DNA of 44,234 nt, taken from the NCBI GenBank assembly GCA_900128395.1, contig LT649294.1, positions 1 to 44,234 of the forward strand, given 5' to 3'. The notes below the pieces were generated by a model that had not been told where the DNA came from, did no database searches, and saw nothing but the letters and a program-made list of their open reading frames with translations. The position numbers and the translations under genes were made by a program. Source of the DNA: Stramenopiles sp. TOSAG23-2 (lineage: Eukaryota). Shown here one piece after another: positions 11,901-37,959 of the stretch (positions are counted from its first letter, which is position 1; each line of letters opens with the position of its first letter).

Positions 11901-14900
11901 TCTGCGCTTTATGAGAATCAGGCGTGGTTTGCGCGTTTTGCATGGTTTGTCGAGGGGATTTATTGTACGCAGGCATGTTTTAAGAATGTTAGAAGCAGTG
12001 AAAATTATTCAACGAGCCACTCGTAGGTTTTTACGGGTACGGCGTATTCATTGGTCCAAAGTTAGAGCTGCATTACTTGTTCAAGCTGTATTTCGTGGAT
12101 ATAAACTACGTCAAAAACGGGAAGATGTTGTAGAATATTTAGCTGTGAAAAGGGAAGAACGCGCAAAAGGAATAGCAATATGCCGTTTGCAAGCAGCATG
12201 GAAAGGTTGTTTAGTTCGACGTCGTTATCATCAAATTAAAGATGCTACTGCAACTATACAAATGTTTCATCGTGCTAACATTTTAAAATTGCATTTTAAT
12301 CGTTTATTACGCGCCGTACATGTAATACAACGTGTCATTCGAGGCATGAACCATAGGAAGAACGTACGGGAAATGAAAACTGCGATAATGGTAGCGGACG
12401 AATTATGGCGTTTAAAAACTGTTCGTGAACGAGAAGCGTTAGATTTGAAGAAATATAACATGGGTACAATTGAAGGTTTGCGTTTGAAAGACTTAAATCG
12501 TTTAGCTAATGATGGACAAGTCGTTGAAGGTCGATGTCTTGATATTGATACTCATATTGATAGCTCTGAAGTTTATACAAGAGGGTGGATGAAATCGTAT
12601 GAATATTTTATGAAAATGTTGACAGAAAATCGCAGAAGACCGCAAACATTGGCACTGGGTTCTCATCACAGCATTGGTTTAGATACAGTCGGCGATGTGT
12701 ATACATGGGGTTGGGGAGATCGTGGCCAATTGGGGCATGGAAGCTACAACAATAAATCTAAATCTACCAAGATAAATTCGCTTGGAAGATTAAATGATTT
12801 ACCAACGCAGCAAGGGCAAAAAATTAGCTTATATAGATCCATGGCAACCCAAGTTATGGTGAAGCAAATTGTTTGTGGGGAAGATCATTCCATGGCGTTG
12901 ACTAAAGAAGGTATTGTCTTTGCATGGGGGTTAAATAGCCGTGGACAATTGGGTCTTGGGGATAAAAATAATTGCGCTGTTCCTACACGTTTACATAGTA
13001 TTAAACCAAGGATCGGGGAAATCGCTGCTGGCGCTTATCACAGTGTTGCGTTGGCATTGTCAGGACACATTTATGTCTGGGGTCGAGGAAAAGAGCTTGG
13101 ATTAGGTGTTTTCGTAGACAATGGAGATAAAACGACGCCGCAATTGGTAAAGGCATTGAAGCGTTTCCGCATCCGCCATGTATCTTGTGGTTTGAATCAT
13201 ACAGTTGCGCAAACACATGATGGTAATTTGTACACTTGGGGCGATAATAAATATGGTCAATTAGGGCTTGGTGACTCGCGTAATCGGTTTGTTCCTTCGT
13301 TGATACAAGTTCAACGAGAAGACAGCCAACGCGTGGAAAGTTTCGCTGATGTATCCAGCGGTGGAAGACACTGTATTGCCGTGTCAAGAAGTGGAGCCGT
13401 ATATACGTGGGGTTGGAATGCGCATGGACAATTAGGTTTGGGCCATAAAGATGATGTAGATACTCCATCCCAAGTTGTATCGTTGGAGAAAGAACGTGTA
13501 ACACAAGTAGCTGCTGGATGGCGTCATACAATAGTACTTTCCAATAGTAGTGGTAACATGTACGCATGGGGTGTCTGCTCTTGTGTTAATCACCGACTTC
13601 GTAGGAAACAATCAAGTGGTAAAAAGGATGATACATTAATTGAAAATACGATACCTGTATCCATACCTTGGAATCAAAAAACATACAGGTTGCCAACTGC
13701 AATAAATGTTGTGTGGAGTCGTATGTCAAGTGTTACGCTTATTTCATATTTGCAAGGTCCTGTTCCCCCTGAAGAACTTGCATTGCCATTATTGGAGATT
13801 AGTCATGAAGAAGTTCAGACAGGTGGGCCACCAGGAAGTCCAAATCAACAACGTCGTTATTTAACAAATCAAGCAATAGTTAGTCAAACCGTCGGAATTT
13901 CATCTCCCGTTGGCTCCCCGTCAAAATCTACTACAATTGTTCCAATCAAAGATAAGCAAAGGGTCAAGCCAAATAAAGTTAGCTCTAAAGATTTAAAAGA
14001 CATGACGGAAGTTCAATTAAAAGAGTTAATTTTGGATATGCAAGATGCTATTCCACATCATTCTAAAATATTAAGTCAATCAACGATGAAAAGAACTGCT
14101 GTGAGACAACAAGCGAAAGCTCTGCCAATAAATAATCGGTTGCATTATATGACAGAATCGGAACATAAGCATGAATTTGGTTTACGCACCTCTGGTGGTA
14201 ATGGCTTCACAGAAGCACAAACAAATGAACAATTTTTATATCGTGGCCCAAGTAAATTTGCACTAGAACGTGCAAAAGAGCGTACGTGGAACAAATACGG
14301 CTCCAGTACTCAGAAAGCTAGAATGGCAAAGCAATTTTATGGATCCGAATCAAAATTACGTAGTGAACTTTTGCAATTTAAGAGTGGTAAGAATAAAGGC
14401 AGACGTCAAGATGATTTTGTTGCATTAATGTCTCCAATGAATACGAATAAAAACAAACAACGGTCTAGCACATCTTCACCAGAGCCGGATATGCATACTC
14501 CAAAATCAAAGAAATCGAGTGGATTAGATTCAGAGCAAATGTTACAATTGTTTTCTCCAGAGTTATTAGTTGCAACGTCAAATGATGAAATTAACGTCCA
14601 AGATGTCATCAAAAAACGTCTGGCAAGGGGTGTACCACCAACTTTGAAAAATCCGAAAAATAATAAAATGTATGTAAACAACAGTGCTACTCTATTTACT
14701 AGTGGCATATACAAATCAAAACCAGAGAATTATATTGATAATGATAGCAATGAACCTACCGTACGACGTCTTATTGGAAACGATGCATTGTCAAGAAGCC
14801 ATGGACGTTATGATGGCAGAAGAACGAAGAAACAACAAAAGGAAGATAAATATATTAAACGTGATGTGTTGCAAAGTTATCTTCGTGCTCAGCAAGGCAT

Positions 14901-15309
14901 ACGGGCAAGTAATAAAAAAGGAAATCAATGGTCAGGTCGTAGACAAAGTGATACTAGAAGGGCACGTAAGCAAATCGAAGCATCCATTTACAATGCACGT
15001 AATGAGGAAGATGATGGAGACCAAGAAGAACGTGATATAGTCCCAGAAATGCAATTTCAAAGTAATTCTATGTATAATAATGATAATAATAATAAAGGTA
15101 ACGATGATCAACGTTTACAGCAACCAAAACCTGTAAGCAAGTTGAATAAATTACGTACTAACTCATATGTTGCATTGGAAAACGAAGTTGAAGCATTGCG
15201 AGCGAAATTAGGGTCAAAGAAGCAAAATTCATCAGCATCGAACTACAATAGTAACAATTTTAAAAATAAAGCGGCAAATGATATTAAAAAAATTTTAGAG
15301 AGTGATTGA
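8917..15309 (+). CDS. Unconventional myosin with multiple IQ motifs and an RCC1-repeat tail
   Basis: 2130 aa. P-loop GESGAGKT, switch I NNNSSRFGK, switch II DIFGFE and RFVRCIK. Several IQ motifs (IQATYRMY, IQAAFRG, VQAVFRG, LQAAWKG, IQRVIRG). RCC1 repeats (VYTWGWGDRGQLGHG, FAWGLNSRGQLGLG, YTWGDNKYGQLGLG, YTWGWNAHGQLGLG). Confidence 0.96.
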   Translation: MSSTFKIKGQGRRNTADRIALLKSRKRANSMNATFFQKGVQVWIENPYEEGTGAYRHGYLSKEKATRPMYVPARVAETLDQSTNKILCETELSPKMRVEQPFEMVWPRNDITDLDDMIDYTHLHEPAVLHNIEQRYLRKQIYTKAGEILIVMNPYKLVMDEHQVGIYDQLYMKKYRESPPPSKLRLLSDKERRRLSLPPHIFETANDVYQTIIQHSQSQSIIISGESGAGKTETTKQIMQYIANLSSVKSTGKNVPTDLVSARRRSLSSRDSLNAYIGQKDEKNVPLIEKQLLQSNPILESFGNAKTLRNNNSSRFGKYLRIVFGEKGHIIGGSIKHFLLEKSRLTDQLDGERSYHFFYQLCLGVPENMQKELWIDSPDKFKFLSDSNSHLIKHAYMGGASSSDEADFKAVDEAFKIVGVEQDIVTEIYKVVSAVLHLGNIRFVEKDDSHTATGTSISGVESSCERSLQAICSLLGFHKEDFMESVTTKSTNAGGNTIISKVSKEAAEQSVISLAKALYAKLFGVIVQAINAGIKKTVTKELGTAEDFDTNPKYKFLGLLDIFGFEVFKEGNGFEQLLINYANERLHNLFIKHVFRLEEKKYEEERIDYSAITFTDNQNVIDLISKKRTGIFQQVSDACLFGRMSEEVMLQKMADKMKKAKSRDGSKPADLFALAHIKHRGCFIVTHSANEVMYTIKGFKTKNKDLLQPQIEDILINGTKLNILQAMFKTPEASSTANRSTLVGANVMLSLRFEENINKLIKTIEQTTPRFVRCIKSNELKKPFYFDTTKVYNQLQYLGVLDSVRIRHDGYSYQKVYRDFFEHFVIVISAPKTQTEFQLIQPADADYRSLSMKVMALYWRWGEQSEKHGDLFDKKTKKDKVQFGTTKLFMRKALSQALETLREVRMQKIDEASTKIQATYRMYQTKANLALFHRSIGRIQAAFRGIHYRTKWCSYRNAINIMQWFFKGFIIKNRYTKKMRALRKLQRYFRKCHGRLRFMRIRRGLRVLHGLSRGFIVRRHVLRMLEAVKIIQRATRRFLRVRRIHWSKVRAALLVQAVFRGYKLRQKREDVVEYLAVKREERAKGIAICRLQAAWKGCLVRRRYHQIKDATATIQMFHRANILKLHFNRLLRAVHVIQRVIRGMNHRKNVREMKTAIMVADELWRLKTVREREALDLKKYNMGTIEGLRLKDLNRLANDGQVVEGRCLDIDTHIDSSEVYTRGWMKSYEYFMKMLTENRRRPQTLALGSHHSIGLDTVGDVYTWGWGDRGQLGHGSYNNKSKSTKINSLGRLNDLPTQQGQKISLYRSMATQVMVKQIVCGEDHSMALTKEGIVFAWGLNSRGQLGLGDKNNCAVPTRLHSIKPRIGEIAAGAYHSVALALSGHIYVWGRGKELGLGVFVDNGDKTTPQLVKALKRFRIRHVSCGLNHTVAQTHDGNLYTWGDNKYGQLGLGDSRNRFVPSLIQVQREDSQRVESFADVSSGGRHCIAVSRSGAVYTWGWNAHGQLGLGHKDDVDTPSQVVSLEKERVTQVAAGWRHTIVLSNSSGNMYAWGVCSCVNHRLRRKQSSGKKDDTLIENTIPVSIPWNQKTYRLPTAINVVWSRMSSVTLISYLQGPVPPEELALPLLEISHEEVQTGGPPGSPNQQRRYLTNQAIVSQTVGISSPVGSPSKSTTIVPIKDKQRVKPNKVSSKDLKDMTEVQLKELILDMQDAIPHHSKILSQSTMKRTAVRQQAKALPINNRLHYMTESEHKHEFGLRTSGGNGFTEAQTNEQFLYRGPSKFALERAKERTWNKYGSSTQKARMAKQFYGSESKLRSELLQFKSGKNKGRRQDDFVALMSPMNTNKNKQRSSTSSPEPDMHTPKSKKSSGLDSEQMLQLFSPELLVATSNDEINVQDVIKKRLARGVPPTLKNPKNNKMYVNNSATLFTSGIYKSKPENYIDNDSNEPTVRRLIGNDALSRSHGRYDGRRTKKQQKEDKYIKRDVLQSYLRAQQGIRASNKKGNQWSGRRQSDTRRARKQIEASIYNARNEEDDGDQEERDIVPEMQFQSNSMYNNDNNNKGNDDQRLQQPKPVSKLNKLRTNSYVALENEVEALRAKLGSKKQNSSASNYNSNNFKNKAANDIKKILESD

Positions 15310-15454
15310 AAATGTAATTTATAAAAAATTTTATATCGACGCCCATAAATCTTTTTTTTTTGTACAAACGGGATTAAATATTATTAAATATCGTATAAAA
15401 ACTATGTTTAACATGAATATCTTTACTGTACACAATACACTTCTCTTTTGTGTT

Positions 15455-15587
15455 TCAATCATTTAAATCACCATTACCTTCTCCTACATCTCTACCATTT
15501 TCATCATAATAATTTGCTTTTCCACCTTTTGAACGTAAAAGTGCAATGATCTCTTGGCGAAGTGGACTATCATTATATCGATATGCC
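15455..15587 (-). pseudogene. Orphan variant copy of the ankyrin-cassette C-terminal tail
   Basis: Translates AYRYNDSPLRQEIIALLRSKGGKANYYDENGRDVGEGNGDLND*, a near-copy of 15630-15762, which reads AYARTDSPLCQ...GRRVGIGNGDLND*. Confidence 0.85.
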
Positions 15588-15629
15588 ACGTGTATTTAAT
15601 TATAATTAAAGTACGAAGTAAAGCGAGTT

Positions 15630-16810
15630 TTAATCATTTAAATCACCATTACCTATTCCTACACGTCTACCATTTTCATCATAATAATTTGCTTTTCCAC
15701 CTTTTGAACGTAAAAGTGCAATGATCTCTTGGCAAAGTGGACTATCAGTACGAGCATATGCCCAGTCCAGGGGAGTGCATCCCGCCAAGTTCTTCTTATT
15801 AATACTCTCAAGAGTCATATGAGTTAATAACAACTCAATCAACTCAGTATTCGTACTGTTAAACCATGCTGCATAATGTAATGCATTCCTTCCATGCCTA
15901 TTTGCAATATTAGGATCAGCTTCACCTTGTTCAATTAAATATTGAACTANNNNNNNNNTGCAATATTAGGATCAGCTTCACCTTGTTCAATCAAAAATTG
16001 AACTACTTGGAAATGTTCGTTCCTTGCAGCTATCATTAAAGGTGTCCATTCATAACCACTACTAGTTTTACCGACTTGATTCACCATATCTTTCAATGTC
16101 ATCTCATCTCTGTAGCCATTCACATCACAATTAGTAATATATTTGTGATAAGGATGAAGATTCATAAATAATTCTACATCATTCATACATCCGCGTTGAC
16201 ATGCACATACGATAGGTGTTGGTACTCGCTCTCTGTGTCTTGTACCACGTGGAAACTCTCTTTGATATCTTGCAATTAATAAATATAATCTTTTCGCTGG
16301 ATGTGTTAGTAGTATCTCATTGATACTTCTTCTACCTTCATAACTTAGACTCAATGCTATATCACGTACACGTTCAAAATCATCTGATCCAAATGCTTTT
16401 CTACATTGTTGTATTGCATCTTCTGGAAACTCTTGTTTATATCTTACAATTAATAAATAAAGTCTTCTCGCTGGATGTGTTAGTAGTATCTCATTTATAC
16501 TTCTTCTACCTTCATAATCAAGCCTCAATGCTATATCACGTACACGTTCAAAATCATCTGATCCAAATGCTTTTCTACATTGTTGTATCAAAGACGATCG
16601 TTTTACATTACATAATGATCCAATATTTAAATATTGCAATATATTTAATAAGATCCCGCAGGCAGACTCAAATCCAGCTGGTAAAACTAATATACCAATC
16701 TTAATAGGTGGTGGTGCCCTTTTTTGTTTTAACCCTTCAATCGTTGCTGGTTTTAACGTCGTACGACGTTGTCGTTTTGCATGTGGCGGTTTGGTAGTAA
16801 TCGACGCCAT
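15630..16810 (-). CDS. Ankyrin-cassette protein A with basic N-terminus, weak F-box-like segment and duplicated 58-aa unit; spans the N gap
   Basis: ORF 15947-16810 plus the segment left of the gap (VQYLIEQGEADPNIANRHGRNALHYAAWFNSTNTELIELLL...TPLDWAY). Ankyrin motifs TPIVCAC, TPLMIAA, NALHYAA and TPLD. Confidence 0.8.
15950..15958. other. Scaffold gap (9 N)
   Basis: N run. The flanks overlap by about 47 bp with 2 mismatches. Confidence 0.98.
16250..16588 (-). repeat. Diverged in-frame 174-bp (58-aa) tandem repeat
   Basis: IQQCRKAFGSDDFERVRDIAL(RLD/SLS)YEGRRSINEILLTHPA(R/K)RLYLLI(V/A)RY(KQ/QR)EFP occurs twice. Confidence 0.92.
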
Positions 16811-17216
16811 CTTGTATATCTTATATATATATCTTATATATATATATATATATATAGTCTCTCTCGCTCTTATATTTTCTACTATTTCTATTATTCATTT
16901 ATTCTTAGTTTGACGAATTCCAATCAATAAAATGCACTACTATAAATGAACAATGAAACTAGAATGCAAACCAGGCAAAGGGGGGAGGACGAAAATATAC
17001 ACGAGAGAGAGGAGTTTTGTGAAAATTAAAAAAAAAACTATCTACGATACGTAAAAAATAAAAAAACGACGCGTTATTTTCGAAAAAAATGATTATAATA
17101 GAAGTAGAAACATTTTATACGAGATACCTTTTTTACTTTTACACACACATCTTTATCCTAAATGGTCTCTCATATTATTAAAACATTCCTCCCCCCCATA
17201 AAATAATAATCAAAAT

Positions 17217-23181: not shown

Positions 23182-26100
23182 ATGGCATCGTTAGTAAATG
23201 CTGACGCCAGTGAAAATAATACGCCAAAAAATGATAATTTTCTCACTACTGTAACAACAGCGTACTCCAAATCATCATCAACAGCCTCTTCCACAAAAGA
23301 TAAATCAAATACAAATGATACGTCAAAGTCTGAAGAAACATTTTTAAAAATTGTTGATTATGCCACATTTATCAATGATTCATACGATAATAAACCAGTT
23401 ATACATGGGAGTGGAATTAAATGCAAATTTACAGAAGAGCATGCAGATAAAGAGTATACTCACGAGTGCGAGGGCTGGGAACTGCTGTTACATGAAGGCT
23501 ATACGGAAACACCTGATTCAACAGGCTTAATATCACCATCAATATCCGCCGTGAAAGTTTGGAAAGCAGGTACTAAATTATGTGTTGCATTTAAAGGTTC
23601 GAAAACTGCTATGGAATGGATAAGCAATGCTAATATTGGAGAAAACGATAAGATTGTGCCAAAATTACAAGAGAATGATTTATTTAGGGTTGAGGTTGAA
23701 CAACTAAATGAAAGTAAAATTGAAGATGAAACAGAAAATGATTCTAACAACAGTATTCAAAATGATGATGAAGATGATATAGGCCAAAGTGAATCTAAAG
23801 ATAATAATGAGGCACAAGATGAAACACAAAATGAGAATGCCCACCAAGAAGATGCAAGGATTGGCAATGAATCGAAACATAATGACGATGAATCTAAAAA
23901 CAATGACGATGAATCCAAGCAAGATGACGATGAATCAAAACATGATGACGATGAATCCAAAATTGCGGACAATGGCGATGAGGAAGATAATGAAGGCGCA
24001 AACAACAACAACAACGGTGAAAATAGTGAAAATACCACTACCACATGCGCAAAAGTACACCAGGGTTTTCTGGACGGATATCTATTTTTACGTGATAAAA
24101 TTATTCATGCAATCAAGGAGAATCTTAACGAAAACAATCAAGTCATTAACGATTTCAAAGAAATTTGGGTTTGCGGCCATTCACGTGGTGGTTCAATTGC
24201 ATCTATTGCAGCTGTTGATTTAGCAAATAGTTTTAATCTGGAAAAAGGCCAAGTAAAAAGTTTAACAATTGGATCTCCTGCAGTTGGGGATGAATTGTTT
24301 CGTAAATTATATGAAGAAAAAGTTGGATCTGAAAATACATATCGTATGATTAATTATTTTGATCCTGTCCCACGTTTATTTGATTTTGTTAATCCAGTAG
24401 CACGTGCAGTAGCAAAAAAAAATGTAGCAGTACATGTTTGTAAGCCATACATTCTTGATTTTGGGTTTTGGCATGCATACGCAAACCTTGCTATTGATGT
24501 TCATTCCGTCCCTGATAAAATAAAGAAACTTGTAGAAAATGCTTACAAACATCATTTTCGTGCCAATTATTTTAAAAACATGTATGAGTATCGATCGAAA
24601 TGGGATTTTTGGGTGCAAAATATCAAGAAGCTTGACTTCAAAACTATTAAGAATTGCGCATTATCGTTTGTGCGATGTGGTACAGATAAAAATGGTAAAA
24701 CGGTCGTATCTTATGTTAAACATACCGTGTCAACAGTAGCAGGGACTAGTAGTAAAAGTGCCAGTACAACAGTAACAAATGCAATTGTAAATGCAACACC
24801 ACTTGGTTGGATCAATCTTGCTGTTAATGTTGTAGGACATGCTGCAACGAATCTTCACATTCATAAAATGTGGAAAGATCAAACGAAACGATTTGATGCG
24901 CTAGAAACAATAATGACGGATGTGAGAAAAGCAGTTGAAAATGCAGAGGAACGCATGATTAATACGGTTAAAAGCGAAATTGATGGTTTGAAAGTGGAAA
25001 TGAATACAGCTGTTAAGAATTTATCCGATGTTGTCAAAGGTGAATTTGATAACCATCGAATAGAAGCTCTCTCTGCGTCTACAAAGCAACTTTTCAGTTA
25101 TTTAAATGGTAATTATGGAAACTGGGACGATATTAAATCGCAGTATCGAGTACTGGAAAACAATTTATCTTACATGACGGAACATGTGAATCTGAGAGAT
25201 GAACCAGAAGTTTTGACAAAACAATGTACAAAATACGAACTGTTCGCATGCCATGTTGCCTTTCAATGCTTCTTTGAATATAGTGAAAGGGAAATTGATG
25301 GAGGGACAAAAGAAGATATGATAAAGAAGAAGATGGAATCAATTGTACAAGTGACAACAGATACCAATCTTTTGGAAATTATACGCAGTCAATTTGAAAA
25401 AGATGTAAATTTGCATGTCAGTCGAAACAAATATGTTGAAGGCCGAAAGAATCATCTAATTCGCTCCGTAGCACCGCATGTCAGATGTTGTATACAAAAT
25501 CTAGAAAATATTGAAGAGGCAGTACAAATATCAAAATGTTTTGATAGTTTATGTTTACATCTAAATGTATTAAAAGACGATTGCCATGGGTCAATCTTGT
25601 TATCACGTAATTTTCATTTATTATGTAATGACAATAGTAATCGAAATTGCAATGACTCCACAGAAATTGTGTCCAGTGGAAATGTTCTAAGTAATAATAA
25701 ATGGATTTATCCTGTACGAGCGCGTGTTGATTACGATGTACAGGATGTAATTAATGTTGCTAAGTCGTTGTTACATGATGATATATTTATGAAAAAAAAA
25801 TCGATATTTTATAAATTATGTATGCTAGCTACAGTTCTCAAAGAAAACAACGATTTGAAAAACTATAAAAATGCATGTGAGGTTTTAAATGATTTTTTAG
25901 ATGGGTTGTATACCAATGCGTCATTTATATGTGCATGCGAGTCGGGTAATGAAGATCATGTTAAATGGTTTATTGAATTTTATACTATTAAAGGTAGTTT
26001 AGACCATATGATTGATGAAGAAGGGTTGTATAGTACAGGCAGAAGTAAATGGACCCCGTTGTCTGTCGCATGTTTAAATGGTAAATTGAATGTTGTTACA

Positions 26101-27287
26101 ATTTTACTTCAGCACGGTGTAAATGTAGATAAACCTCGTATTCGTGATGGAAAAACAGCTTTGATGTTTGCATGTAGTGAAGGTAATACTGAAATTGTTA
26201 AGCATTTATTAGACCATGGAGGGAAAGTAGGTTTGAAGGATCATGAGAATAAGTCAGCACTTGCATATGCTCTGATTGGAAATAAAGAAGACATTGTAAA
26301 GTCTTTATTAGAAAATGTCACATATGAAATTGCATTAAATGCAAAAGGCAATTTTGAAGAATCATGTCGTGAAATTACAACAAATGAAAAGGGTGCAATG
26401 AAATTATTGCTTAAATGGTTGTGCAAAAAATTAATAGCGAAATATAAGAAAGAATTTCCAAAAGGTACGCCATTAGTATTTGCATGTGAAAAAGGACGTT
26501 TTGAGGATGTGAAATTATTGATTACAGGGCATAATGATGTGAATGGTAGTAATGGTAATAATAATAATAATATGACATTGAAAGAATACGTGAATCAAGT
26601 CGGTAAAGATAGTTGTATGTGCATGTGAAAAAGGACGTTTGGAGGATGTGAAAGTATTGATTACAGGGCGTAATAATGATGTGAATGGTAGTAATGGTAA
26701 TAATAATAATAATATGACATTGAAAGAATACGTGAATCAAGAAGGTAAAGATAGTGGTGGTTTTGGGAATTTACACCTTTAATGGCAGCTGCAGGACACG
26801 AACATTTCCAAGTAGTTAAATATTTGATTGAACAATGTGAAGCTGATCCTAATATTGCTTATAGTGGTGGAAAGAATGCATTACATTATGCAGCACGTTA
26901 TAACAAAAAGGATACGAAGTTGATTGAGTTCTTATTAACTAATATGCCTCTTACTAGCATTAATAAGAAGGAGGACACGAACATTTCCAAGTAGTTAAAT
27001 ATTTGATTGAACAATGTGAAGCTGATCCTAATATTGCTTATAGTGGTGGAAAGAATGCATTACATTATGCAGCACGTTATAACAAAAAGGATACGAAGTT
27101 GATTGAGTTCTTATTAACTAATATGCCTCTTACTAGCATTAATAAGAAGGACAGGCCAAGGTACGGGGAATTGACTCCCCTGGACAGGGCATATCAATAT
27201 AATAATAGTCCAATTCAACAAAAGATCATTGATCTTATACGTTCAAAAGGTGGAAAACGTGCAAAAGAATTAACAACATGGTTTTAG
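23182..27287 (+). CDS. Class-3 lipase / coiled-coil / ankyrin-repeat fusion protein (cassette B); 3' end disrupted by duplications
   Basis: Lipase_3 motifs VAFKGS, VHQGF, GHSRGG (nucleophile elbow), TIGSPAVG and DPVP. Ankyrin repeats TPLSVAC, TALMFAC and SALAYA precede the shared cassette (EFPKGTPLVFACEKG...), which continues in ORFs 26782-26994 and 27003-27287. Confidence 0.85.
23881..23961 (+). repeat. 21-bp coding minisatellite, (N/D)DDESKx x4
   Basis: NDDESKN-NDDESKQ-DDDESKH-DDDESK within an acidic insertion in the lipase domain. Confidence 0.85.
26482..26754 (+). repeat. Imperfect tandem duplication (period 139 bp) of the first part of the ankyrin cassette
   Basis: gcatgtgaaaaaggacgttt...ggtaaagatagt at 26482 and 26621. 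The copies differ by F/L, L/V, H/RN and V/E. Confidence 0.9.
26793..27150 (+). repeat. Exact 179-bp tandem duplication inside the ankyrin cassette
   Basis: aggacacgaacatttcc...aataagaagg at 26793-26971 and 26972-27150. Confidence 0.93.
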
Positions 27288-28131
27288 TTAGTAGTAATAT
27301 ATAGTAATAATATTTTATATATATATTTAATATACTTTTATAATATATCATACACAAAATAAATTGTACCCTCGTAAAATAAATATTTTCTTTTATATAC
27401 TATATATCTGATATTTAATAAAACAATTGAATACAATGATAAAGCTATTATAACGTGTACGTAACCAATATTAAATGATCCATGAGATACTAATTCGATG
27501 CAATAAAGTTTCATAAACGCATTTTAGAAGATTAAAAATGAATAATGTATCACATTTCAACTAAATTCTCACTAGAAAAACGTTGAATTTTAAAAATATC
27601 ATTGTAAAATATATATATTACGATCGTTTATAATATGCAAACCAAATTACAGACACATCAATAAAGATGCACACTACCAAGCGATAATCTAATTATTCCT
27701 ACACGCTATAAATGTATAATAAACATATTTTAAAAAAAGTAACATAATGTATTATAATTATTCATTTTAAAGGTTAACTTTGAATTTTGAAACGCTAGCG
27801 TGAAAGAAACATTTTGCAAGAGATGTGAGGTGTGTATATGTTGTATTATATAAAGATAGAAAGAGAAGCTAGAAGTATACGGTTTGATTTGATAAAAAAA
27901 CAAGACATATGTTATGCACAAAGTTTTCGTAACTTTTTATCTTTTTCATAATGTTTCATGTTTTACAAAATGTGTGTGGAGTGATTCTAAATGTTTTTAG
28001 TAATTTGTAAAGAACGTATCATATATATCATTATCATACATTATTATAAATATTGATATTTATAAATATATATGTCTTTTAGTCCCTCTCTCTGGTCTCC
28101 CTCTCATGCGCACATTTGCCAGATTGATGCA

Positions 28132-28381
28132 TACATTTGATTTCAAAAACTATTGTGTTTGATGTGATATGTATCATATTGCAAACGGCAAACCTCTCCC
28201 CTCTATTTTTATCAAAAACACATTTTGATTTCAAAAAACTAATTTACAATATATTCTACATTTGATTTCAAAAACTATTGTGTTTGATGTGATATGTATC
28301 ATATTGCAAACGGCAAACCTCTCCCCTCTATTTTTATCAAAAACACATTTTGATTTCAAAAAACTAATTTACAATATATTC
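28132..28381. repeat. Exact 125-bp tandem duplication (non-coding)
   Basis: tacatttgatttcaaaaac...acaatatattc at 28132-28256 and 28257-28381. Confidence 0.92.
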
Positions 28382-28394
28382 GAATGTATCATTT

Positions 28395-29644
28395 TTACAA
28401 TCCTAAACTTTTTAACAAATCACTTGTACTTTGTGGTTGTGTTGCTTGTTGTTGTTGTTTTCCTTGTTTCTTGTTCTTTTTTTTATTATTCTTACTACTA
28501 CTACCTTTCTTTTTTTTCTTATTTGCCCCACCTGTCGTTGTCTTCGTATCCTCTTTGTCATCATCAATAACAATAGTAGTTGTTGAACTAGTTCCTTCAC
28601 CTAAATCATCCAATGTTTTATTTAATGTCATTGTAAATATTTGTTCTAATTTCTTATCACGTATATTTAAATGTTGTAAAATATTCAATGCTTGTAAACA
28701 ATGTTTCTTTGCATTACGCAATTCTCCTAATGCAAATTCAACACTTGCAGCCGTGCCAATGCACATCGCTTATATGGATATACATATATGATATATATAT
28801 ATAGTTTGTTGTTAGATATATAATATATATACATTTATATAATATTTACAATAAATAATGGAACAGAAGATATTATTAATAATAAGCGTGACTTACCTGC
28901 ATATTTACTCGTTGTTGTATTGACTAAATATTTAAATGCAATTTTTAAATGCAATAAACTTTTTGAAAAATCTTGTTTTTGTGCATAACTTTGTCCTTTT
29001 GAAAAATGTTCTTTAAATTTTGTAATACGTTCATCATCTTTCAATTGATTGATTTGTTTTTGCGCAGCACTATTGTTCACATCATTACTACTATTGTTGT
29101 TGTTGTTATTGCTTAAGAAATAATCATCAATATTATCAATGCTTGTATTTGTATTATTTAATTCAAATTCTTCTTTTAATAAATCTTCTGTACTAACGAT
29201 TGCTTCAATGCCTTGTGTAACTAATGCTTTTTTACGATTACGTTCTTTTAATATTGCATCTTCTTTCTTTTTCAATCTAGCATCGATTTTCAATTGTTGC
29301 GTTGCTGAAATAGTTTGCTCTTCCGCTTCATTTGCTGCTACAAAGACACCAACTTCTAATGCTTCTTTACGTTTTTCTGCTGCAATTTTACCTTTCGCAA
29401 ATGTTAATAATGAATTTAATTTTTCAGATTGATCTTCTTCATCTGAATCTGTTTCTGGTTCATCTTTATCTGCATTATGTAATATCGATGATACGGTAAT
29501 TTGACCTTTCTTTTTCTTCTTTTTCTTTGTTTTCTTTGCCGTACTATCATTAATCAATGCATCATCACGTCGTTTTTGTTCCTCTGCACTAATATATTTA
29601 CCTGGATTTAATGGGTCATCAAAAACTTCAGTAAATTCTGACAT
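28395..29644 (-). CDS. TPR-like protein, 2 exons (29644-28897, 28768-28395)
   Basis: A GTAAGT...CTAAC...AG intron at 28896-28769 joins the frames as SKYA-A-MCIGTAASVEFALGELRNAKKHCLQAL. Helix pattern is TPR-like. Confidence 0.75.
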
Positions 29645-30124
29645 TTTGTGTATTAATTATTAATTATTATTATTATTATACTAAAATATTCTATGTTTTT
29701 GTTAATATAACAAAAGATACTACAATACTGTAAATATGTATATATATATTGTGTATATATATTGTATATATGAATTGATAGTTATACAATCACGATTATA
29801 TTATGTATATATACAATATGTATATATGTCTGTATAATTTTTTATTTATTCAAATTTAAATTAAAATTATTCCAATTTATCAAATATATATTATAATATT
29901 AATATATTTAATTAGGGAACGAAGAATAAAAATTGTTGTTATAATTGTTTAAAAAAATAAAAAAGCCAAACACACAAGTATTGTTGTTGAATTTAACACC
30001 CCGTACTCTTTTTTATATATGTTTTATCTTTGTTCAAACGATGTGTTATATATATTCGTATGTTTCTATATATACCTGCGGTGTTGGTGTTTACTGGTTA
30101 GCCGATTGATGCATTTTCATTCTA

Positions 30125-30530
30125 TCCATACATGTTTAATATTGATAAATGTCATGTCAATCTATACACATACATAACTACACACTATTGAATACACAAA
30201 GATAGAATCAATGTCATTTTACATATATTAAATACTTCCATCCATACCTGTTTAATCTCGATAAATGTCATGTCAATCTATACAAATAGATAACGACACA
30301 ATATTGAAAACACAAAAATACAATCAATGTCATTTTACATATATAAATAAAATATGATTTTTTTTGCCTTTTCGTCGGTCTTCATTACAATTTATTTGTT
30401 GCTGAGGCATTAACGACACAATATTGAAAACACAAAAATACAATCAATGTCATTTTACATATATAAATAAAATATGATTTTTTTTGCCTTTTCGTCGGTC
30501 TTCATTACAATTTATTTGTTGCTGAGGCAT
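30125..30530. repeat. Diverged ~116-bp tandem repeat overlapping an exact 120-bp duplication
   Basis: tccatac.tgtttaat...gataaatgtcatgtcaatctatac...aatcaatgtcattttacatatat at about 30125 and 30241. 30291-30410 is identical to 30411-30530. Confidence 0.88.
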
Positions 30531-30846
30531 GAGGCATGAGGCAGCCAGCATACAGCAGCGAGCGAGCGAGTGGTATATATATATATATAAAAGTGAAAGA
30601 AATAATACCTACTTTTGTAAAATACGAGATAGAAAAGAAAAAACAGACCCAGTGTTTACAGTATTAGTTGCAACAATACATATACATTTTTTGTTTATAT
30701 ATATATAAATTGTAAATTATAACAACATTTTTACTCCCAATTATTATTAATATTAATTATTACTTAATAATTTGGAATTTCATAAAATATATATATACAT
30801 ATATTATTTTGGATATTGATACATACATCTCTAACGTATAGGAAAC

Positions 30847-32018
30847 ATGAAAATGAATAGACAAGGATCATTGTTGATGGTAGGAACATTAATAATAGCA
30901 ATTCTAATGAATGTATATATTGTATGTATTAATGGACAAGCGCAACAACAACAACAGCAACGACCACCAATGCCACCTCCATCACATGAAGGACATGCGC
31001 ATCAACAACAAGAGCAACAACATATGCCACCACAACAAGGTGGATATCGACCACCGCCACCACCACCTGGTTATGGTGCGCAACAGATGCATTATCAACA
31101 TCATCAACAGCAACAACAACAGGGTGAAGGGAATGTTCCACAATATGGACAACATATGCCCCCACCCCCAAAGTAAGTAAATTATATTATATAATCACGA
31201 CAGATAACACTTTTAATCTAACATAAAAATATTATATATATAGTTATTATCAACATGCACAACAACAACAATATCAACAACATCAACAACAACAACAACC
31301 GCAACATGGAATGCCGCCACCACATATGTATCAACAACAACAACAACATGGAGGATATCAACCACCACCACCACATGGTTATGGATATCCACCACATATG
31401 ATGCATCAACAACAACAACAACAACAACAATATGGACATCAACATCATATGCCACCACCAAAGTAAGTATATATGCAAAATGCAGTTACATTCATATACA
31501 TACATTTATATACAGACGTCTAACATCATATATATATATATATATATAGTTTCAATATGCATCAACAATATTTACAACAATTTATGCCTGGAATGCCACC
31601 GCCACAACAACAACAACACCATCAACATGGTATGCCACCACCACCTCCACCACATCAACAACAACAACAATATGCAAATTGGCAACAAGGTGCTGGTGGT
31701 AATTCAATGCCAAATCCACAACATTTTCAACATCAAGAACATATGCATAATATACCAGGTGCAACACCAAATAGTCAATATCAAAAACAACCGGAAACAT
31801 TTGGTGGACATGGTGGAAAATATGTACCACCACCACCACCACCACCAATCTTACCACGTTTATGGCCAAAACAAGGTGGAGAGAAAGGAGGAAAAGGCGA
31901 TGATGCAGCGACAACCAATAATAATAATAATGATGATCAAAGTGGTAAAGCATCATTGGAAGATAAAATAGCAAAAATTAAAAATGCATTGAAAGAATTT
32001 CAAAAAGATGAGTTGTAA
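30847..32018 (+). CDS. Q/P/H-rich secretory-pathway protein with C-terminal KDEL, 3 exons (30847-31172, 31244-31462, 31550-32018)
   Basis: Signal peptide (LLMVGTLIIAILMNVYIVCING). Two phase-2 GTAAGT...CTAAC...TAG introns keep the frame. Ends EFQKDEL*. Confidence 0.85.
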
Positions 32019-32898
32019 AAATATTTCGTGTTGGATATTTTGTATTCAAAATATTTGAAGGAGAATAATGGTTGAAAATCCACGAGAGATTAAATAAAGC
32101 GTGTCTCGATTTACGAGGGAAGTGTATTTAAAAAAGAATTTGTATTGTGTGTGTAATTTAATTTGAAAATCTGAATTTAATAACTACGTAAATCTTTTTT
32201 ATTTATATACACCTGTCACATTAAATTTACTTTTAACTTTATTAATTTTTAAACTCTACGGCCGTATTTTTTTCCCGTTTGTCTTCCTAATATTCCATGT
32301 AGTGAATGGTGCCACGACCATTTGCAATCAACAATATTGTGAGCAATACCTAATATTATGATGCGTTGTATTTCTATGGAATATGACCAATTAAATTGAT
32401 ATGATATAATAATAAATTATGTTTTTGTTTGTAACGACATTTACCAGGAAAAGAAATAGAAAAAACACATAATTTCAACGTTTGAATTCAATAATTTAAA
32501 CGATAAAATAAAATTGTATCAAGACTTGATTGCGTATACATCATTGTTTATAATATCTCCATAGATAATAAATTGTGATAAAATTGTGTTGTATTGTTGA
32601 TATTAAAAATAATAAGAGAAGACGTTTTAACTTTCATTAGATTGTCGTTATTAATTTCTATTTTTTTTACCATAATTATTTTAATTCAGTGTAAACAATG
32701 AAGTAAAACGAAAGACTGGAATAATCAGGAGAGTGTTCTTTTGTCTTGTGTGTGTGTCGTCTGTCATGTACGAATGGTGTGTTGGCGGTCTACGATGTAT
32801 ACATATATCTGAAAAAAGTTTAATAGAGGGTATTTTTTAGATTGTGTATTTCATTAATTTACTTCAATATTTATTTAATTTTTTATGTTTAAATTTTT

Positions 32899-34740
32899 TT
32901 ATAATTCCCTCCATTTTTTTCCACCTTTTGAACGTATAAGATCAATGATCTTTTGTTTAATTGGACTTTTATTATATTCATATGCCCAGTCCAGGGGAGT
33001 GTCCCCCCCGCCCTTCTTATTAATGCTAGTAAGAGACATATTAGTTAATAACAACTCAATTAACTTCGTATCCTTTTTGTTCCAACGTGCTGCTAAATGT
33101 AATGCATTCGATCCATAACTAATTGCAATATTAGGATCAGCTTCACCTTGTTCAATCAAATATTTAACTATTTGGAAATGTTCGTCTCTTGCAGCTATCA
33201 TTAAAGGTGTATTTTCACCACCACGAGTATCTTTACCGACTTGATTCACGTATTCTTTCAATGTCATACCACTTTCATTCGCATCATGGGTTTCTACTAA
33301 AACTTTAACAACATCCAACATACCTTTCTCGCTTGCAATAATTATACCTATATGCTTCCAATAACTTTTCATCACTGCTTGATGCCCCGTATCCAACCAT
33401 TTCTTTACTTGTTCATCGGTTAAATTACCCCAATCCGTATTAAATTCTTTTATTGATTTATTTTTTTTCATGACATTACATATTTCATCAATAACATCAT
33501 TGGTTAAATCATAATATGTCACGGATTCAATTTTATTTAAACGTATAGCATCTAAATTTAATCCACCACCTACTTCAAATAAATGTTGAATATATTGACG
33601 AATACTTATACCCATCGCTCGCGTTGCAATGTATACTTCTAATAACGTACGTGTTATTGATATTGCAGATAATATTAATGACAATCCTAACGTTTGTTCT
33701 GTATTTAATTTAAAAAAATATAAATCTAATGTTTCGTTTGGATTAAAACCACATGTTTTATCATCAGTGCATGTGAAATATAATATTAATTGCAATATTG
33801 TTTGTGGAAATGATTCACATAATACTTCAATTAATACACGTAATGCTTCATATTGTATCATGAAGATTGATAATTTAGTTGGTGTACATCGATTCAATGG
33901 ACGATAAAAGATAATGTATATATCTAATATTGGTACAAGTGGTATGGATAATGGTAATAATATACAACGTTTGATGTTGTTTTGTCGTATTTGTTTGGTT
34001 TTCTGTTCGAGAGATTTATCATAATCTTTAAATGATTTGCTTGGGTTGACTTTTGTGGCTGACTTATTACCGCTACCATCGCTGTATTTCCAATTAAGAT
34101 CATACGTATTATCATCATTCACTTTTGTAATCTTTCCTTTACCATACTCGTATCCATCCTCCCATTTATATTTATACTCCACCTCATCACCAACTTGCAA
34201 ACGTTTCCTTGGATTTTTAAATAAATCGGTTTTAAAATATACATTTATACCAAACCATCCTAATCCAAATTGTAATGTTAAAAAACTCAACATGAAATAA
34301 TACATCATTTGTACATATCCATTGGTTGATTTTGATAAATTAACTAATAATGCAATATCGGATGACATATCTAACCAATAACATAATATTTTAAAGAAAA
34401 TATTTAATGCCAAAAGTAATGATATAAATCTTGGATATTTTTCTTGTATTTTATTTAAACATCTTCCACATGATTTTACTTTCTTATTTTTATATGAACG
34501 TATTCTTGAACGGATACGTCGTGGACGTTGTTTTTTCTCTTTTTTCTTTCCATTTGTTTCACTTGGATGTATTTTAGTTGATAATTTCTTCTTTGCTTGA
34601 TCATCCAGTATCGACCCAGCAACGACTGTACCACCAACTAATGCAAGACCACCCGCTTCCATCATCGTTTCCGTTGTCCCTACATTGGCATTATCCAACA
34701 ATTCACCACTTTGCGTAATGGCATCAATTACTTGTGACAT
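32899..34740 (-). CDS. XK-related (scramblase-like) membrane domain + Tudor/SH3-like insert + ankyrin cassette C
   Basis: XK-like motifs WLDMSSDIALL and EVLCESFPQTILQL with several TM segments. Insert LQVGDEVE...GKITKVNDDNTYDL. C-terminal cassette MTLKEYVNQVGKD...IRSKGGK. Confidence 0.85.
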   Translation of the reverse strand: MSQVIDAITQSGELLDNANVGTTETMMEAGGLALVGGTVVAGSILDDQAKKKLSTKIHPSETNGKKKEKKQRPRRIRSRIRSYKNKKVKSCGRCLNKIQEKYPRFISLLLALNIFFKILCYWLDMSSDIALLVNLSKSTNGYVQMMYYFMLSFLTLQFGLGWFGINVYFKTDLFKNPRKRLQVGDEVEYKYKWEDGYEYGKGKITKVNDDNTYDLNWKYSDGSGNKSATKVNPSKSFKDYDKSLEQKTKQIRQNNIKRCILLPLSIPLVPILDIYIIFYRPLNRCTPTKLSIFMIQYEALRVLIEVLCESFPQTILQLILYFTCTDDKTCGFNPNETLDLYFFKLNTEQTLGLSLILSAISITRTLLEVYIATRAMGISIRQYIQHLFEVGGGLNLDAIRLNKIESVTYYDLTNDVIDEICNVMKKNKSIKEFNTDWGNLTDEQVKKWLDTGHQAVMKSYWKHIGIIIASEKGMLDVVKVLVETHDANESGMTLKEYVNQVGKDTRGGENTPLMIAARDEHFQIVKYLIEQGEADPNIAISYGSNALHLAARWNKKDTKLIELLLTNMSLTSINKKGGGDTPLDWAYEYNKSPIKQKIIDLIRSKGGKKWREL

Positions 34741-35405
34741 CTTTCTTTTTTTCTTCTTCTTTGTGCTATAATATATTATTATTATTACTACTATTATTAG
34801 TTACTATTTCAAATATTTGTTTGTTTGTTTCTTTCTTCACTCTCCATCTATCTATCTATCTATCCATCTATCCATCTATCTATCCATGCAGGAATGTGTA
34901 CAATCATATAAATATATTAACATGTAAATACTATAGGAAATAACCCATTTGTTTTCTTCATTTTAACAATTTGTAACGAAAGTCCGAAAGTGGAATTTAG
35001 TATCATAAAAACTAATATGAAAAATACAGATAATAATATATAAATAGAATCACATTTAACAACAGAAAAGAAGATGAAATAATCGGATATTTTATTTAAT
35101 ATTTTAAATTTTCACCTGTCAAGGCACACGATTTTAGCCATGTTCGAGCGAGCGTTTCTAACACAATGCTGTGTAATGTAAATAATCGATTAAATATCGA
35201 CATATAAAAATAGTTTTGAGGTGTTTTATAAAGTTAAATTACTAAAATATCAAAAATATTTACACCCCCCGCCCCTTTCTTTTTTTGGTTTTCCTCTCCG
35301 CCGCGAGAGTTTTTTTTCTTTTCTTTTCTCTTTACGTTTTTACCACTTTATATACCCGCTTAACCAAGCACCTCTGCATCTCTTGCATACAGTACATACC
35401 GTTTA

Positions 35406-37217: not shown

Positions 37218-37450
37218 TTCCCACCTGCATTAGTATTAGCACCAGTAACCATCCCAACCACATTGGCAGATGAAATTTGGCCACTAACTACCGTTTGTAC
37301 CTTTCCTGACGTAAACGCTATATACGGAGTTGCTGATGTAGTAGTGCTACCACCATCGCCAACGTTCATAGTATGTAGAGAGACCACAGAACCTGCAGCT
37401 TTATTTTCATCAATTTGGAATAGATAGTTATGTGAAGGTACAAATGGCAA
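37218..37450 (-). pseudogene. Inverted fragment of a cadherin-like surface protein
   Basis: The minus strand reads PFVPSHNYLFQIDENKAAGSVV (cadherin start P.F....Y.F.I.EN...G.VV) followed by S/T/G-rich sequence. No plausible start or end. Confidence 0.5.
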
Positions 37451-37959
37451 AACTGGACGCTATGTTATTATTCGCTCTCCAGATGCATTTACTAATGGCA
37501 TTTGGTTCCAGTACAACGGTTAGTCTTTCTGCCGTAGGACATTTTGTAGTTAATGTAGCAGATGCCAATGAACCACCTGTGGCATATGATAAATCCCATA
37601 TACGATCCGAAAATGCACCAATTGGTTCGTTCATTGATTATTATATAGCAACGGATGAAGATACAGCAGATGTGTTGACATACACGATTGTAAATGGGAA
37701 CGAAGATGGCGTTTTCAGTGTTGATACGGCCGATCCATGTTTTATTTGGTTAGCAAAATCATTAGATTATGAAACAAAACCAAAACATGTATTGGAAGTG
37801 GAAATATCAGATCGTACATGTACTTGCACAAAAATAAAGCCCTGTTTTGATACAACAACGGGCGTTTGTTACGGTACTGGGTACGATGGTACTTGCCAAA
37901 GCAGATGCCATGATGCCAAAATTAATAAATATAATCAAAAAGAATTCTCTTTGATATAA
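37451..37959 (+). pseudogene. Cadherin-domain gene fragment with Cys-rich tail
   Basis: VNVADANEPP, SENAPIGS, ATDED, LTYTIVNGNEDGVF, LDYE and VEISD make up one cadherin repeat, followed by a Cys-rich stretch and an abrupt stop. Confidence 0.75.

Follow-up and report, generated by a model that had tools for sequence, protein, structure and literature searches.

Fungal and plant NLRs and lamprey VLRs are known examples of repertoires in which a repeat framework stays frozen while selected positions become hypervariable; such repertoires mark recognition systems engaged in arms races. F-box and cullin-adaptor proteins with ankyrin (ANK) repeats, together with expanded families under positive selection, include Legionella AnkB, the poxvirus ANK/PRANC proteins, the ASB proteins and the F-box expansions of nematodes and plants. 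In diversity-generating retroelements (DGRs), for example that of Bordetella phage BPP-1 with its target Mtd, hypervariability falls on ligand-contacting codons, and the third base is often kept. In this study, we analysed three copies (A, B and C) of an ANK module, which form the C-terminal parts of three unrelated genes in contig LT649294.1 (assembly GCA_900128395.1; the whole stretch of 44,234 nucleotides (nt) is called the window below), together with their relatives in sequence databases. An original prediction, made from the letters of the window, held that variation among these copies concentrates at the ANK binding surface, as it does in libraries of designed ankyrin repeat proteins (DARPins).

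In the excerpted text of Magliery & Regan (2005, PMC1261162), the most variable positions among 15,497 ANK repeats are 2, 3, 5, 13, 14, 17, 32 and 33, and the same excerpt states that DARPins were randomised at positions 2, 3, 5, 13, 14 and 33, chosen from contact residues (Binz et al. 2003/2004). A DARPin-like pattern per se is expected of any ANK family, because ANK variability generally concentrates at these positions, as far as that excerpt describes it (PMC1261162). The excerpted sections of Dyrka et al. (2014, PMC4986451) describe the ANK, TPR and WD repeats of fungal NLRs as strongly conserved sequences that are reshuffled both inside and among genes, with positive selection acting on the concave face. 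What is unusual in the family described below is how sharply the variation is confined to the surface, given a framework that is frozen even at its synonymous sites.

Results

Copy C is the intact module. At 32902..33264 on the reverse strand, it encodes the helix MTLKEYVNQVGK followed by three ANK repeats, which together form the C-terminus of a 613-amino-acid (aa) membrane protein, and it matched positions 1-118 of the family hidden Markov model with 194.5 bits. As assembled, copy B (26714..27287, forward strand) is disrupted in three ways: it contains a 142-nt near-duplicate, its frame shifts by 1 nt near 26765, and a 179-nt unit is present twice. It was read in collapsed form, with the duplication removed by coordinate (26714-26764, 26767-26970 and 27150-27284, forward strand). 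Copy A (15633..16102, reverse strand, composed of 16102..15959 and 15902..15633) is split by a 9-N scaffold gap at 15950-15958, the ends of which are duplicated. After the duplications had been collapsed, the three copies were aligned over 118 columns.

Over the 57 codons from EHFQ to INKK (alignment columns 29-85), copies B and C showed two synonymous differences (GCT/GCA and TTG/TTA) and nine non-synonymous ones, which reproduced exactly the count given in the original prediction. The five double-nucleotide changes that it listed (TAT/ATT, GGT/TAT, AAG/TCG, TAT/TTA and TAT/TGG) were confirmed and were located at ANK positions 1, 3, 5, 10 and 14 of repeat 2. The residue strings that it had read were also correct, both in repeat 2 (NRH-G-R-NALH-Y-AA-WF in A, YSG-G-K-NALH-Y-AA-RY in B and ISY-G-S-NALH-L-AA-RW in C) and in the other repeats (RN/GH/RD; NLAGC/DRPRYGEL/GGGD; W/R/W; AR/QY/EY). 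Its start coordinate, 26979, falls within the second of two 100% identical 179-nt tandem units in copy B (26793-26971 = 26972-27150, forward strand), which break the frame of this copy and are a probable assembly artefact.

Amino-acid differences between B and C were found at 16 of the 23 surface-class codons (ANK positions 33, 1, 2, 3, 5, 10, 13 and 14) versus 8 of 94 codons elsewhere (Fisher p = 5e-9). When the DARPin positions 2, 3, 5, 13, 14 and 33 were taken as an a priori set, 10 of 17 codons differed versus 14 of 100 (p = 1.7e-4), and the differences between A and C and between A and B were also clustered at the surface (p between 1e-6 and 1e-4). Although B and C belong to genes with unrelated N-termini, their framework dS was 0.045; their framework dN was 0.039, and their surface dN reached 0.59 with the DARPin set and 0.73 with the extended set, which is 13-16 times the framework dS.

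A word-indexed search with the C-terminal 174 aa returned 154 proteins, the best few dozen of which shared 49-80% identity and came from marine metagenomes and EukProt. A search of the representatives of the whole library was dominated by long multi-ANK proteins at 28-39% identity and contained about two dozen true relatives. The 273 proteins fetched yielded 61 full modules in 50 proteins, and 54 modules were retained after A, B and C had been added and those at least 95% identical had been removed. In this protein set, mean column entropy (H) was 2.73 bits at the 18 DARPin-class columns versus 1.03 at the other 100 (Mann-Whitney p = 3e-8). The proposal that the variable sites are the positions randomised in DARPins held for 12 of the 18 most variable columns (positions 2, 3, 5, 13 and 14). 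Positions 1 and 10 also vary, their inclusion raising the count to 16 of 18, and position 33 (H = 0.99-1.75) and, in repeats 1-2, position 2 are conserved. About 18-24 codons are variable, at ANK positions 1, 3, 5, 10, 13 and 14 (and at 2 in repeat 3), and their combinations are close to random.

For comparisons at the DNA level, a metagenome scan gave 296 pattern matches, of which 164 were confirmed as relatives. The best 80 loci of these 164 were used, and they contained 100 full modules counting copy C, or 102 with A and B. Among the 102 modules, 98 distinct 18-residue surface strings were counted, and only 6 module pairs were at least 97% identical in DNA. No relatives of the module were detected in scans of viral and prokaryotic genome collections, and a literature search, which did not cover supplements, found no paper describing this ANK-module family.

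A FastTree tree of 96 modules, the 102 less six near-duplicates, served to count site-wise changes by codon parsimony; the column counts given below refer to these 96 modules. The totals were 493 synonymous and 2633 non-synonymous changes, corresponding to a global dN/dS of 1.31. The changes were not evenly spread: 19 columns had dN 3.05-5.62 times the global dS, all of them at ANK positions 1, 2, 3, 5, 10, 13 or 14 in the three repeats, and most framework columns had dN far below the global dS. Both the concentration of variation and a dN/dS above 1 at the variable sites, which had been proposed from the three copies, were thus recovered with many copies.

The proportion of differing synonymous sites (pS) in the framework had a median of 0.12 over 5151 module pairs, and of 0.11-0.155 within single assemblies. 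The corresponding non-synonymous proportion (pN) at the surface was about 0.48 overall and 0.42-0.53 in every framework-pS bin, and it was 0.42 in the 128 pairs with pS < 0.03. Because surface pN is flat across the framework-pS bins, the surface codons are saturated while synonymous sites have hardly moved. The composition of the surface also departed from the neutral expectation: W exceeded it 9.5-fold, D and G 3.6-fold and R 1.9-fold, and I, L, K and V reached only 0.1-0.4 of it (I 0.1); the residues for which surface codons were enriched were W, D, G, Y, N and R.

The earlier remark that several variable codons keep their third base could be extended to the large set, in which the third base of a surface codon depended on its column. 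At column 51 it was T in 92 of 96 modules, and at columns 28 and 90 it was C in 71 and 72 of 96, respectively. Of the bases at third positions in the framework, only 9% were C. Since protein-level selection cannot distinguish NNC from NNT, a column-specific third base indicates shared ancestry of the codon in each column, and it argues that the surface diversity is young. Surface residues were nearly independent between repeats (match correlation about 0.02). Mutual information exceeded that of shuffles only at directly adjacent surface codons (z = 2.6-4.7) and was near zero at distances of three codons or more, and whole surface 'words' were shared above chance (21, 6 and 2 pairs versus means of 7.4, 1.7 and 0.07).

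The original prediction had offered either selection or a targeted, templated mutagenesis as the cause of the diversification. A targeted mutator would be favoured by the many variable codons that keep the third base while positions 1-2 vary, and by some columns in which AAT and AAC are more frequent than any other codons (column 49, 34 of 96 modules; column 62, 38; column 28, 40). The surface is also rich in Y, N, D, S and G, as DGR variable regions are. However, positions 1-2 of the surface codons varied equally whatever the consensus base (A 0.42, n = 15; G 0.53, n = 12; T 0.47, n = 9), framework adenines were as fixed as other bases (0.073), and 15 of the 23 consensus-A positions lying between surface codons varied in fewer than 5% of modules. 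Transitions made up 0.39 of the changes at surface codons and 0.61 of those at third positions in the framework, contrary to the signature of a deaminase. As had been predicted, no reverse transcriptase (RT) was found in the window, in the 19 of its 20 open reading frames (ORFs) of at least 150 aa that were scanned. Near the related loci, none was found among the 25 most frequent of 144 Pfam families in 108 neighbouring ORFs, the neighbours being otherwise ordinary eukaryotic genes, and neither an invariant template copy nor a template repeat was seen in the window. A DGR-like adenine mutator was rejected on account of the missing base specificity and of the lack of an RT among the window ORFs scanned. 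Of the two causes, selection was the one supported, and mutagenesis in its DGR form was not.

Variation at a single locus was assessed with syntenic contigs and full-length relatives. Copy B and its counterpart in contig L059, whose flanks are 85-92% identical, differ at 17 of 17 surface residues and at 7 of 81 other codons, with a framework pS of 0.04. The copy C protein is 84% identical to the full-length relative P0008 (518 of 615 aligned columns), and 15 of the 17 comparable hypervariable residues differ between the two in an alignment that was read by eye. In 20 locus pairs with similar flanks, 21 module pairs could be matched by position and compared at 16-18 surface residues. Six of these pairs differ at one surface residue at most (one of the six being the same contig fetched twice), only two lie between at 6-9 residues, and 13 differ at 12 or more, at a framework nucleotide divergence of 2-11%. 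One such comparison pairs L005 with L043: their flanks are 98.2% identical, but the frameworks diverge by 7.9%, and 17 of the 18 surface residues differ. Between L063 and L043, a contiguous block has been swapped over columns 64-72. Two framework subtypes were recognised, along with recombinant combinations of them. At the related loci L039, L025, L064, L049, L061, L046 and L034, two or three family genes of ~320 aa lie head to tail, about 250-300 nt apart, and such tandem arrays could drive unequal exchange.

An AlphaFold model of an intact A-type protein, based on a 36-sequence alignment, showed a block-mean predicted local distance difference test (pLDDT) score of about 80-97 over most of the ANK part, with helices for repeat 0, an inserted helix and the three repeats; the N-terminal 110 residues were poorly predicted (pLDDT about 45). 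The module is an ankyrin domain the size of a DARPin, in which a cap-like repeat 0 and an inserted helix precede three full repeats, and the best Foldseek matches to the model were DARPins and designed ANK proteins (probability 1.00). The model places the variable sites on the first helix of each repeat and in the loop that leads into it, in agreement with the surface location that had been predicted for them.

The family ORFs are mostly about 300-350 aa long, and all 72 of those compared with the ANK profile matched it. At least three types of N-terminus can be told apart among them, with an LP...I..IL.YL motif in common. In the window the module is joined to lipase_3, membrane and possible F-box-like partners, and in database relatives to kinase, RING and zf-MYND domains. 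The copy A gene (15630..16810, reverse strand; Ank E = 3e-9) has the commonest architecture of the family, in which a possible F-box-like N-terminus is followed by ANK repeat 0 and the module, and its N-terminal type is common to at least 30 loci. In the copy C gene (32899..34740, reverse strand), an N-terminal transmembrane region precedes the ANK module (Pfam Ank_2 E = 1.9e-31). The membrane part of this protein has a weak XK-related Pfam match (E = 0.008), and the same Pfam family has been precomputed for the family member P0039. An ORF with Lipase_3 (Pfam E = 5.4e-25) and Ank_2 (E = 4.5e-26) matches, at 23182..26628 on the forward strand, runs into copy B and terminates within a 142-nt near-duplicate (26531-26616 versus 26673-26758, 97%).

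The identity of the commonest N-terminal domain was addressed with several profiles. Among 38 N-terminal domains, F-box-like was the commonest Pfam match, with 16 (best E = 0.0016), and 11 matched F-box, but the one member with a listed score had 14.4 bits for F-box-like, below the cut-off of 24.3, and only 2 of 72 whole ORFs had an F-box match at E <= 0.01. The best named Atlas clusters for the domain were all F-box, at 0.80-0.88, under the 0.9 line, and a profile of the domain compared with PDB sequences gave no F-box and only a chance annexin match (E = 0.78). On this weak F-box evidence, the chance that the commonest gene type has an F-box-like adaptor role is about even. No NOD domain (NACHT or NB-ARC) was present among the 12 Pfam families matched in the 72 family ORFs at E <= 0.01, and the lipase protein had none within its middle 550 aa (residues 401-950).

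The TPLD codons of repeat 3 (27170-27181 in copy B; 15775-15786, reverse strand, in copy A) read ACTCCCCTGGAC in every copy inspected, related modules included. These codons are GC-rich, which is odd for an AT-rich genome, and the TPL codons of repeat 1 are AT-rich.

The window is a draft assembly in which, besides the 9-N gap, stretches of 92-179 nt recur in tandem at 100% identity, in coding as well as non-coding sequence. Five such pairs were located, at 3973-4156, 7683-7986, 28132-28381, 30291-30530 and 26793-27150, four of them head to tail and one with its units 28 nt apart; those other than the 179-nt pair in copy B measure 92-138 nt. Tandem pairs at 90-97% identity were located at 15452-15762, 16236-16583 and 26531-26758. 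The duplications resemble artefacts of the assembler or of gap closing. An extra partial copy of the tail of module A (15452..15587, reverse strand) is a 91% tandem duplicate of 15627-15762 and is missing from the syntenic contig L034. This contig is 99% identical to the window over 13784-16910 and carries copy A unbroken, without the gap and without two tandem duplications of ~175 nt; its module differs from copy A at 1 of 118 codons. Contig L059 is in synteny with the window over copy B and the gene downstream of it, and there the 179-nt unit occurs only once and the frame is open. Because L034 and L059 lack them, the disruptions of copies A and B are probably assembly artefacts. Sequencing error as the source of the variation was rejected, as the variation is in frame, codon-structured and reproduced in independent contigs; the surface residues agree at all positions or all but one in six matched pairs and between copy A and L034.

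The GC content of the window is about 25-43% per kb, and its genes are mostly single long ORFs of an ordinary eukaryotic kind, encoding a myosin-RCC1 fusion, V-ATPase subunit a, a mitochondrial carrier and an SH3 protein. The window is nuclear DNA of a eukaryote, and a giant-virus origin was rejected on account of the ordinary eukaryotic genes (V-ATPase, myosin and mitochondrial carrier). V-ATPase subunit a has relatives in metagenomes at 58-99% identity, and its named best matches that were inspected, at 36-38% identity, were all stramenopiles (diatoms, oomycetes and Rhizochromulina). Judged from this one protein, the host is probably an uncultured marine stramenopile. Sampled words of the region 32100-34800 were present at 0.81-0.89 in two small DNA runs and at 0.12-0.33 in marine metagenomes and RNA runs, which provides no evidence of expression or habitat.

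Several other features of the window and of the related loci were recorded. A single ORF of 2130 aa (8917-15309, forward strand) fuses a myosin head and IQ motifs to an RCC1-like propeller (Pfam Myosin_head E = 8.7e-187, RCC1 E = 6.2e-70). A Q/P/H-rich protein with a weak SARAF match (E = 5e-5) is split into two ORFs (30847-32018, forward strand), which are apparently joined over an AT-rich stretch at 31462-31556 that starts with GTAAGT and suggests an intron. A cadherin domain (E = 1.1e-11) was found in an ORF at 37432-37959 on the forward strand. The flanks of the related loci L001-L080 contain very strong TPR neighbours (TPR_12 E = 1.9e-154, three members; TPR_10 E = 1.4e-103, two members), which may point to a second repeat family that has expanded in these genomes.

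Discussion

We consider it likely that the pattern reflects diversifying selection on the binding surface of a large ANK-module family that is young or evolves in concert, because the framework is nearly fixed even at synonymous sites, non-synonymous change at the surface is far above synonymous change, and the composition of the surface is not neutral. This case for selection is independent of how new surface variants arise, whether by point change or by exchange with paralogues. The three gene ends and their relatives suggest a natural recognition repertoire. In such a repertoire the module would most likely be the target-recognition part, in which about 18-24 residues, those on the first helix (ANK positions 10, 13 and 14) and in the loop leading into it (1, 3 and 5, and 2 in repeat 3), would decide what is bound, and the N-terminal domain would decide the fate of the bound target. 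Diversifying selection on binding specificity would both keep and drive the surface variation; the family may be young or may be kept uniform by exchange among paralogues, and modules may have been moved among genes by ectopic recombination.

Several observations weigh against this interpretation. The site-wise counts were obtained by parsimony on a tree that ignores recombination, and with per-site synonymous counts only 6 columns pass Bonferroni correction (17, 24, 51, 61, 78 and 98), of which 78 is a non-surface column. The dN/dS ratios are inflated if exchange or nucleotide-level constraint depresses framework dS. In six syntenic pairs with a framework divergence of at most 4%, the 70 differing surface codons had 1, 2 and 3 changed bases in the ratio 25:35:10, the same as in unrelated pairs (244:315:129; odds ratio 1.0), which is more easily explained by replacement than by stepwise substitution. 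The four closest non-identical pairs (at least 97% nucleotide identity) had only 2 surface codons among their 16 differing codons, about the share expected by chance, and these pairs show no sign of steady ongoing surface change at the shortest time scale.

The data themselves also call for caution. Some positional matches in the tandem arrays are ambiguous, and the sequences come from draft short-read assemblies with evident artefacts in exactly these modules. The conserved stretches of 60-70 nt between repeats could make an assembler fuse different paralogues, and the near-zero correlation between repeats (r about 0.02) may be partly artificial, produced by paralogues that the assembler has joined. 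A pairwise homoplasy index (PHI)-type recombination test gave no distance signal (p = 0.9), with about 40% of site pairs incompatible at all distances, and therefore lends exchange no formal support. Nevertheless, because the matched pairs are bimodal, the codon ratios resemble re-draws and the closest pairs hold few surface changes, change at a locus looks episodic and wholesale rather than stepwise, which would fit exchange with paralogues. Exchange is also suggested by the block swap over columns 64-72, by the recombinant framework subtypes and by the low framework dS of B and C despite their unrelated N-termini.

This behaviour is also what would be expected under concerted evolution with ancient surface diversity, an explanation that we hold to be possible but doubtful. 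Gene conversion would homogenise the framework, selection would prevent the surface from being overwritten, and loci would change by exchange of modules or short patches. The explanation overlaps with that of diversifying selection and still requires selection for diversity. It would account for the two classes of matched pairs with almost none between, for the surface codons of close syntenic pairs that look like random re-draws, for the nearly identical flanks but almost wholly different surfaces of L005 and L043, and for the block swap between L063 and L043. The association of adjacent surface codons but not of distant ones, and the arrangement of the family in tandem gene arrays at related loci, also speak in its favour. 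However, ancient divergence should have erased the column-specific third base, including C, which is rare in the genome, and several re-drawn pairs keep a framework divergence of 2-3.5%, under that typical of paralogues. In addition, surface codons 2-5 codons apart are unassociated (mean z = -0.22 at 3-6 codons), so that the exchanged tracts would be a few bases long, and the negative PHI test gives this explanation no help.

Another account is relaxed constraint, under which exposed ANK positions would vary as they ordinarily do in a family that has expanded recently. It agrees with the general variability of ANK positions 2, 3, 5, 13, 14, 17, 32 and 33 in the excerpted survey (PMC1261162) and with the youth of the family as judged by synonymous divergence (median pS 0.12). 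Relaxation nevertheless allows dN/dS to reach at most about 1, and the values here are 3-5.6 by parsimony and about 13-16 for B versus C. The surface composition, with its excess of W and shortage of I, is far from neutral for an AT-rich genome, and other exposed positions, such as 33, are conserved; we therefore regard relaxed constraint as very unlikely. A dedicated targeted mutator, either a DGR with a template repeat and an adenine-specific RT or a deaminase-type hypermutation, is scarcely credible given the missing base specificity, the low transition fraction and the lack of an RT in the ORFs scanned, the lack of excess surface change in the four closest pairs and the expectation that no known mutator would hit codon positions 1-2 of 18 scattered codons.

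Under diversifying selection, a more far-reaching picture can be drawn, although we think it unlikely in its entirety. The family would be a germline repertoire of at least a hundred DARPin-like binders in a unicellular marine stramenopile, whose surfaces short-patch exchange among paralogues would continually redraw and selection would keep diverse, and with outputs wired to ubiquitin ligase (F-box-like and RING), lipase, kinase and membrane functions. It would provide an innate, antibody-like recognition of viruses, parasites, prey or non-self without the NOD domain of NLRs. If this were true, the modules would represent an unstudied recognition layer in ocean protists, in this case an uncultured stramenopile resembling marine heterotrophs, with possible roles in defence against viruses or parasites, in prey handling or in self/non-self discrimination, and the recognition system would be built on a fixed ANK module common to many gene types. 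The family would then also be of direct use to scaffold design, as a test made by nature of which ANK positions and residues suit binding, with positions 1 and 10 in use and W, Y, N, D, G and R favoured.

Compared with known systems, the family resembles DGR targets in that its hypervariability is confined to predicted ligand-contacting codons in which the third base is often kept. It differs from them in having no adenine specificity, no RT in the ORFs scanned and no template repeat seen, in its eukaryotic host, and in comprising about a hundred dispersed targets, not one. With the F-box and cullin-adaptor families it shares a possible F-box-like plus ANK architecture, a large family size and rapid change limited to the presumed substrate-binding part. 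Unlike in those families, the F-box assignment here is below threshold, the N-terminal pLDDT is about 45, and many members carry other N-terminal domains.

The likeness to DARPin libraries lies in a fixed consensus framework with a diversified beta-turn and first helix, and in a matching size and fold. In contrast to those libraries, this is a natural germline-encoded repertoire whose three repeats have different frameworks, and, measured against the randomised positions given in the excerpt of Magliery & Regan, position 33 is conserved, position 2 is conserved in repeats 1-2, and positions 1 and 10 are variable instead. At the variable sites of the natural modules, W and G are common and C is present. 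The libraries of Binz and colleagues reportedly exclude C, G and P.

The nearest described phenomenon, going by the excerpted sections of PMC4986451, is that of the fungal NLR or NWD repeat domains (Podospora het-d/het-e/nwd). Unlike the fungal NLRs, the ANK-module family has no NOD domain in the 72 ORFs or in the part of the lipase protein that was covered, and it is whole three-repeat modules that are conserved between genes, not repeats within one gene. A within-protein repeat identity of at least 85%, as expected of fungal-type NLRs with highly conserved repeats, is not reached, as the three repeats of copy C share 3/21, 6/21 and 7/21 framework positions; moreover, the module length is fixed, with no variation in repeat number seen, and the host is a stramenopile-like protist, not a fungus. 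Like the fungal NLRs, however, as they are described in these sections, the modules have repeat frameworks that are near-identical in DNA, they appear to undergo exchange both within and between family members, and they are attached to varied N-terminal effector domains, lipase-like ones among them. In both cases, positive selection at binding-face positions is combined with uniform frameworks, a combination represented in the present family by 19 columns of high dN and by the low framework pS.

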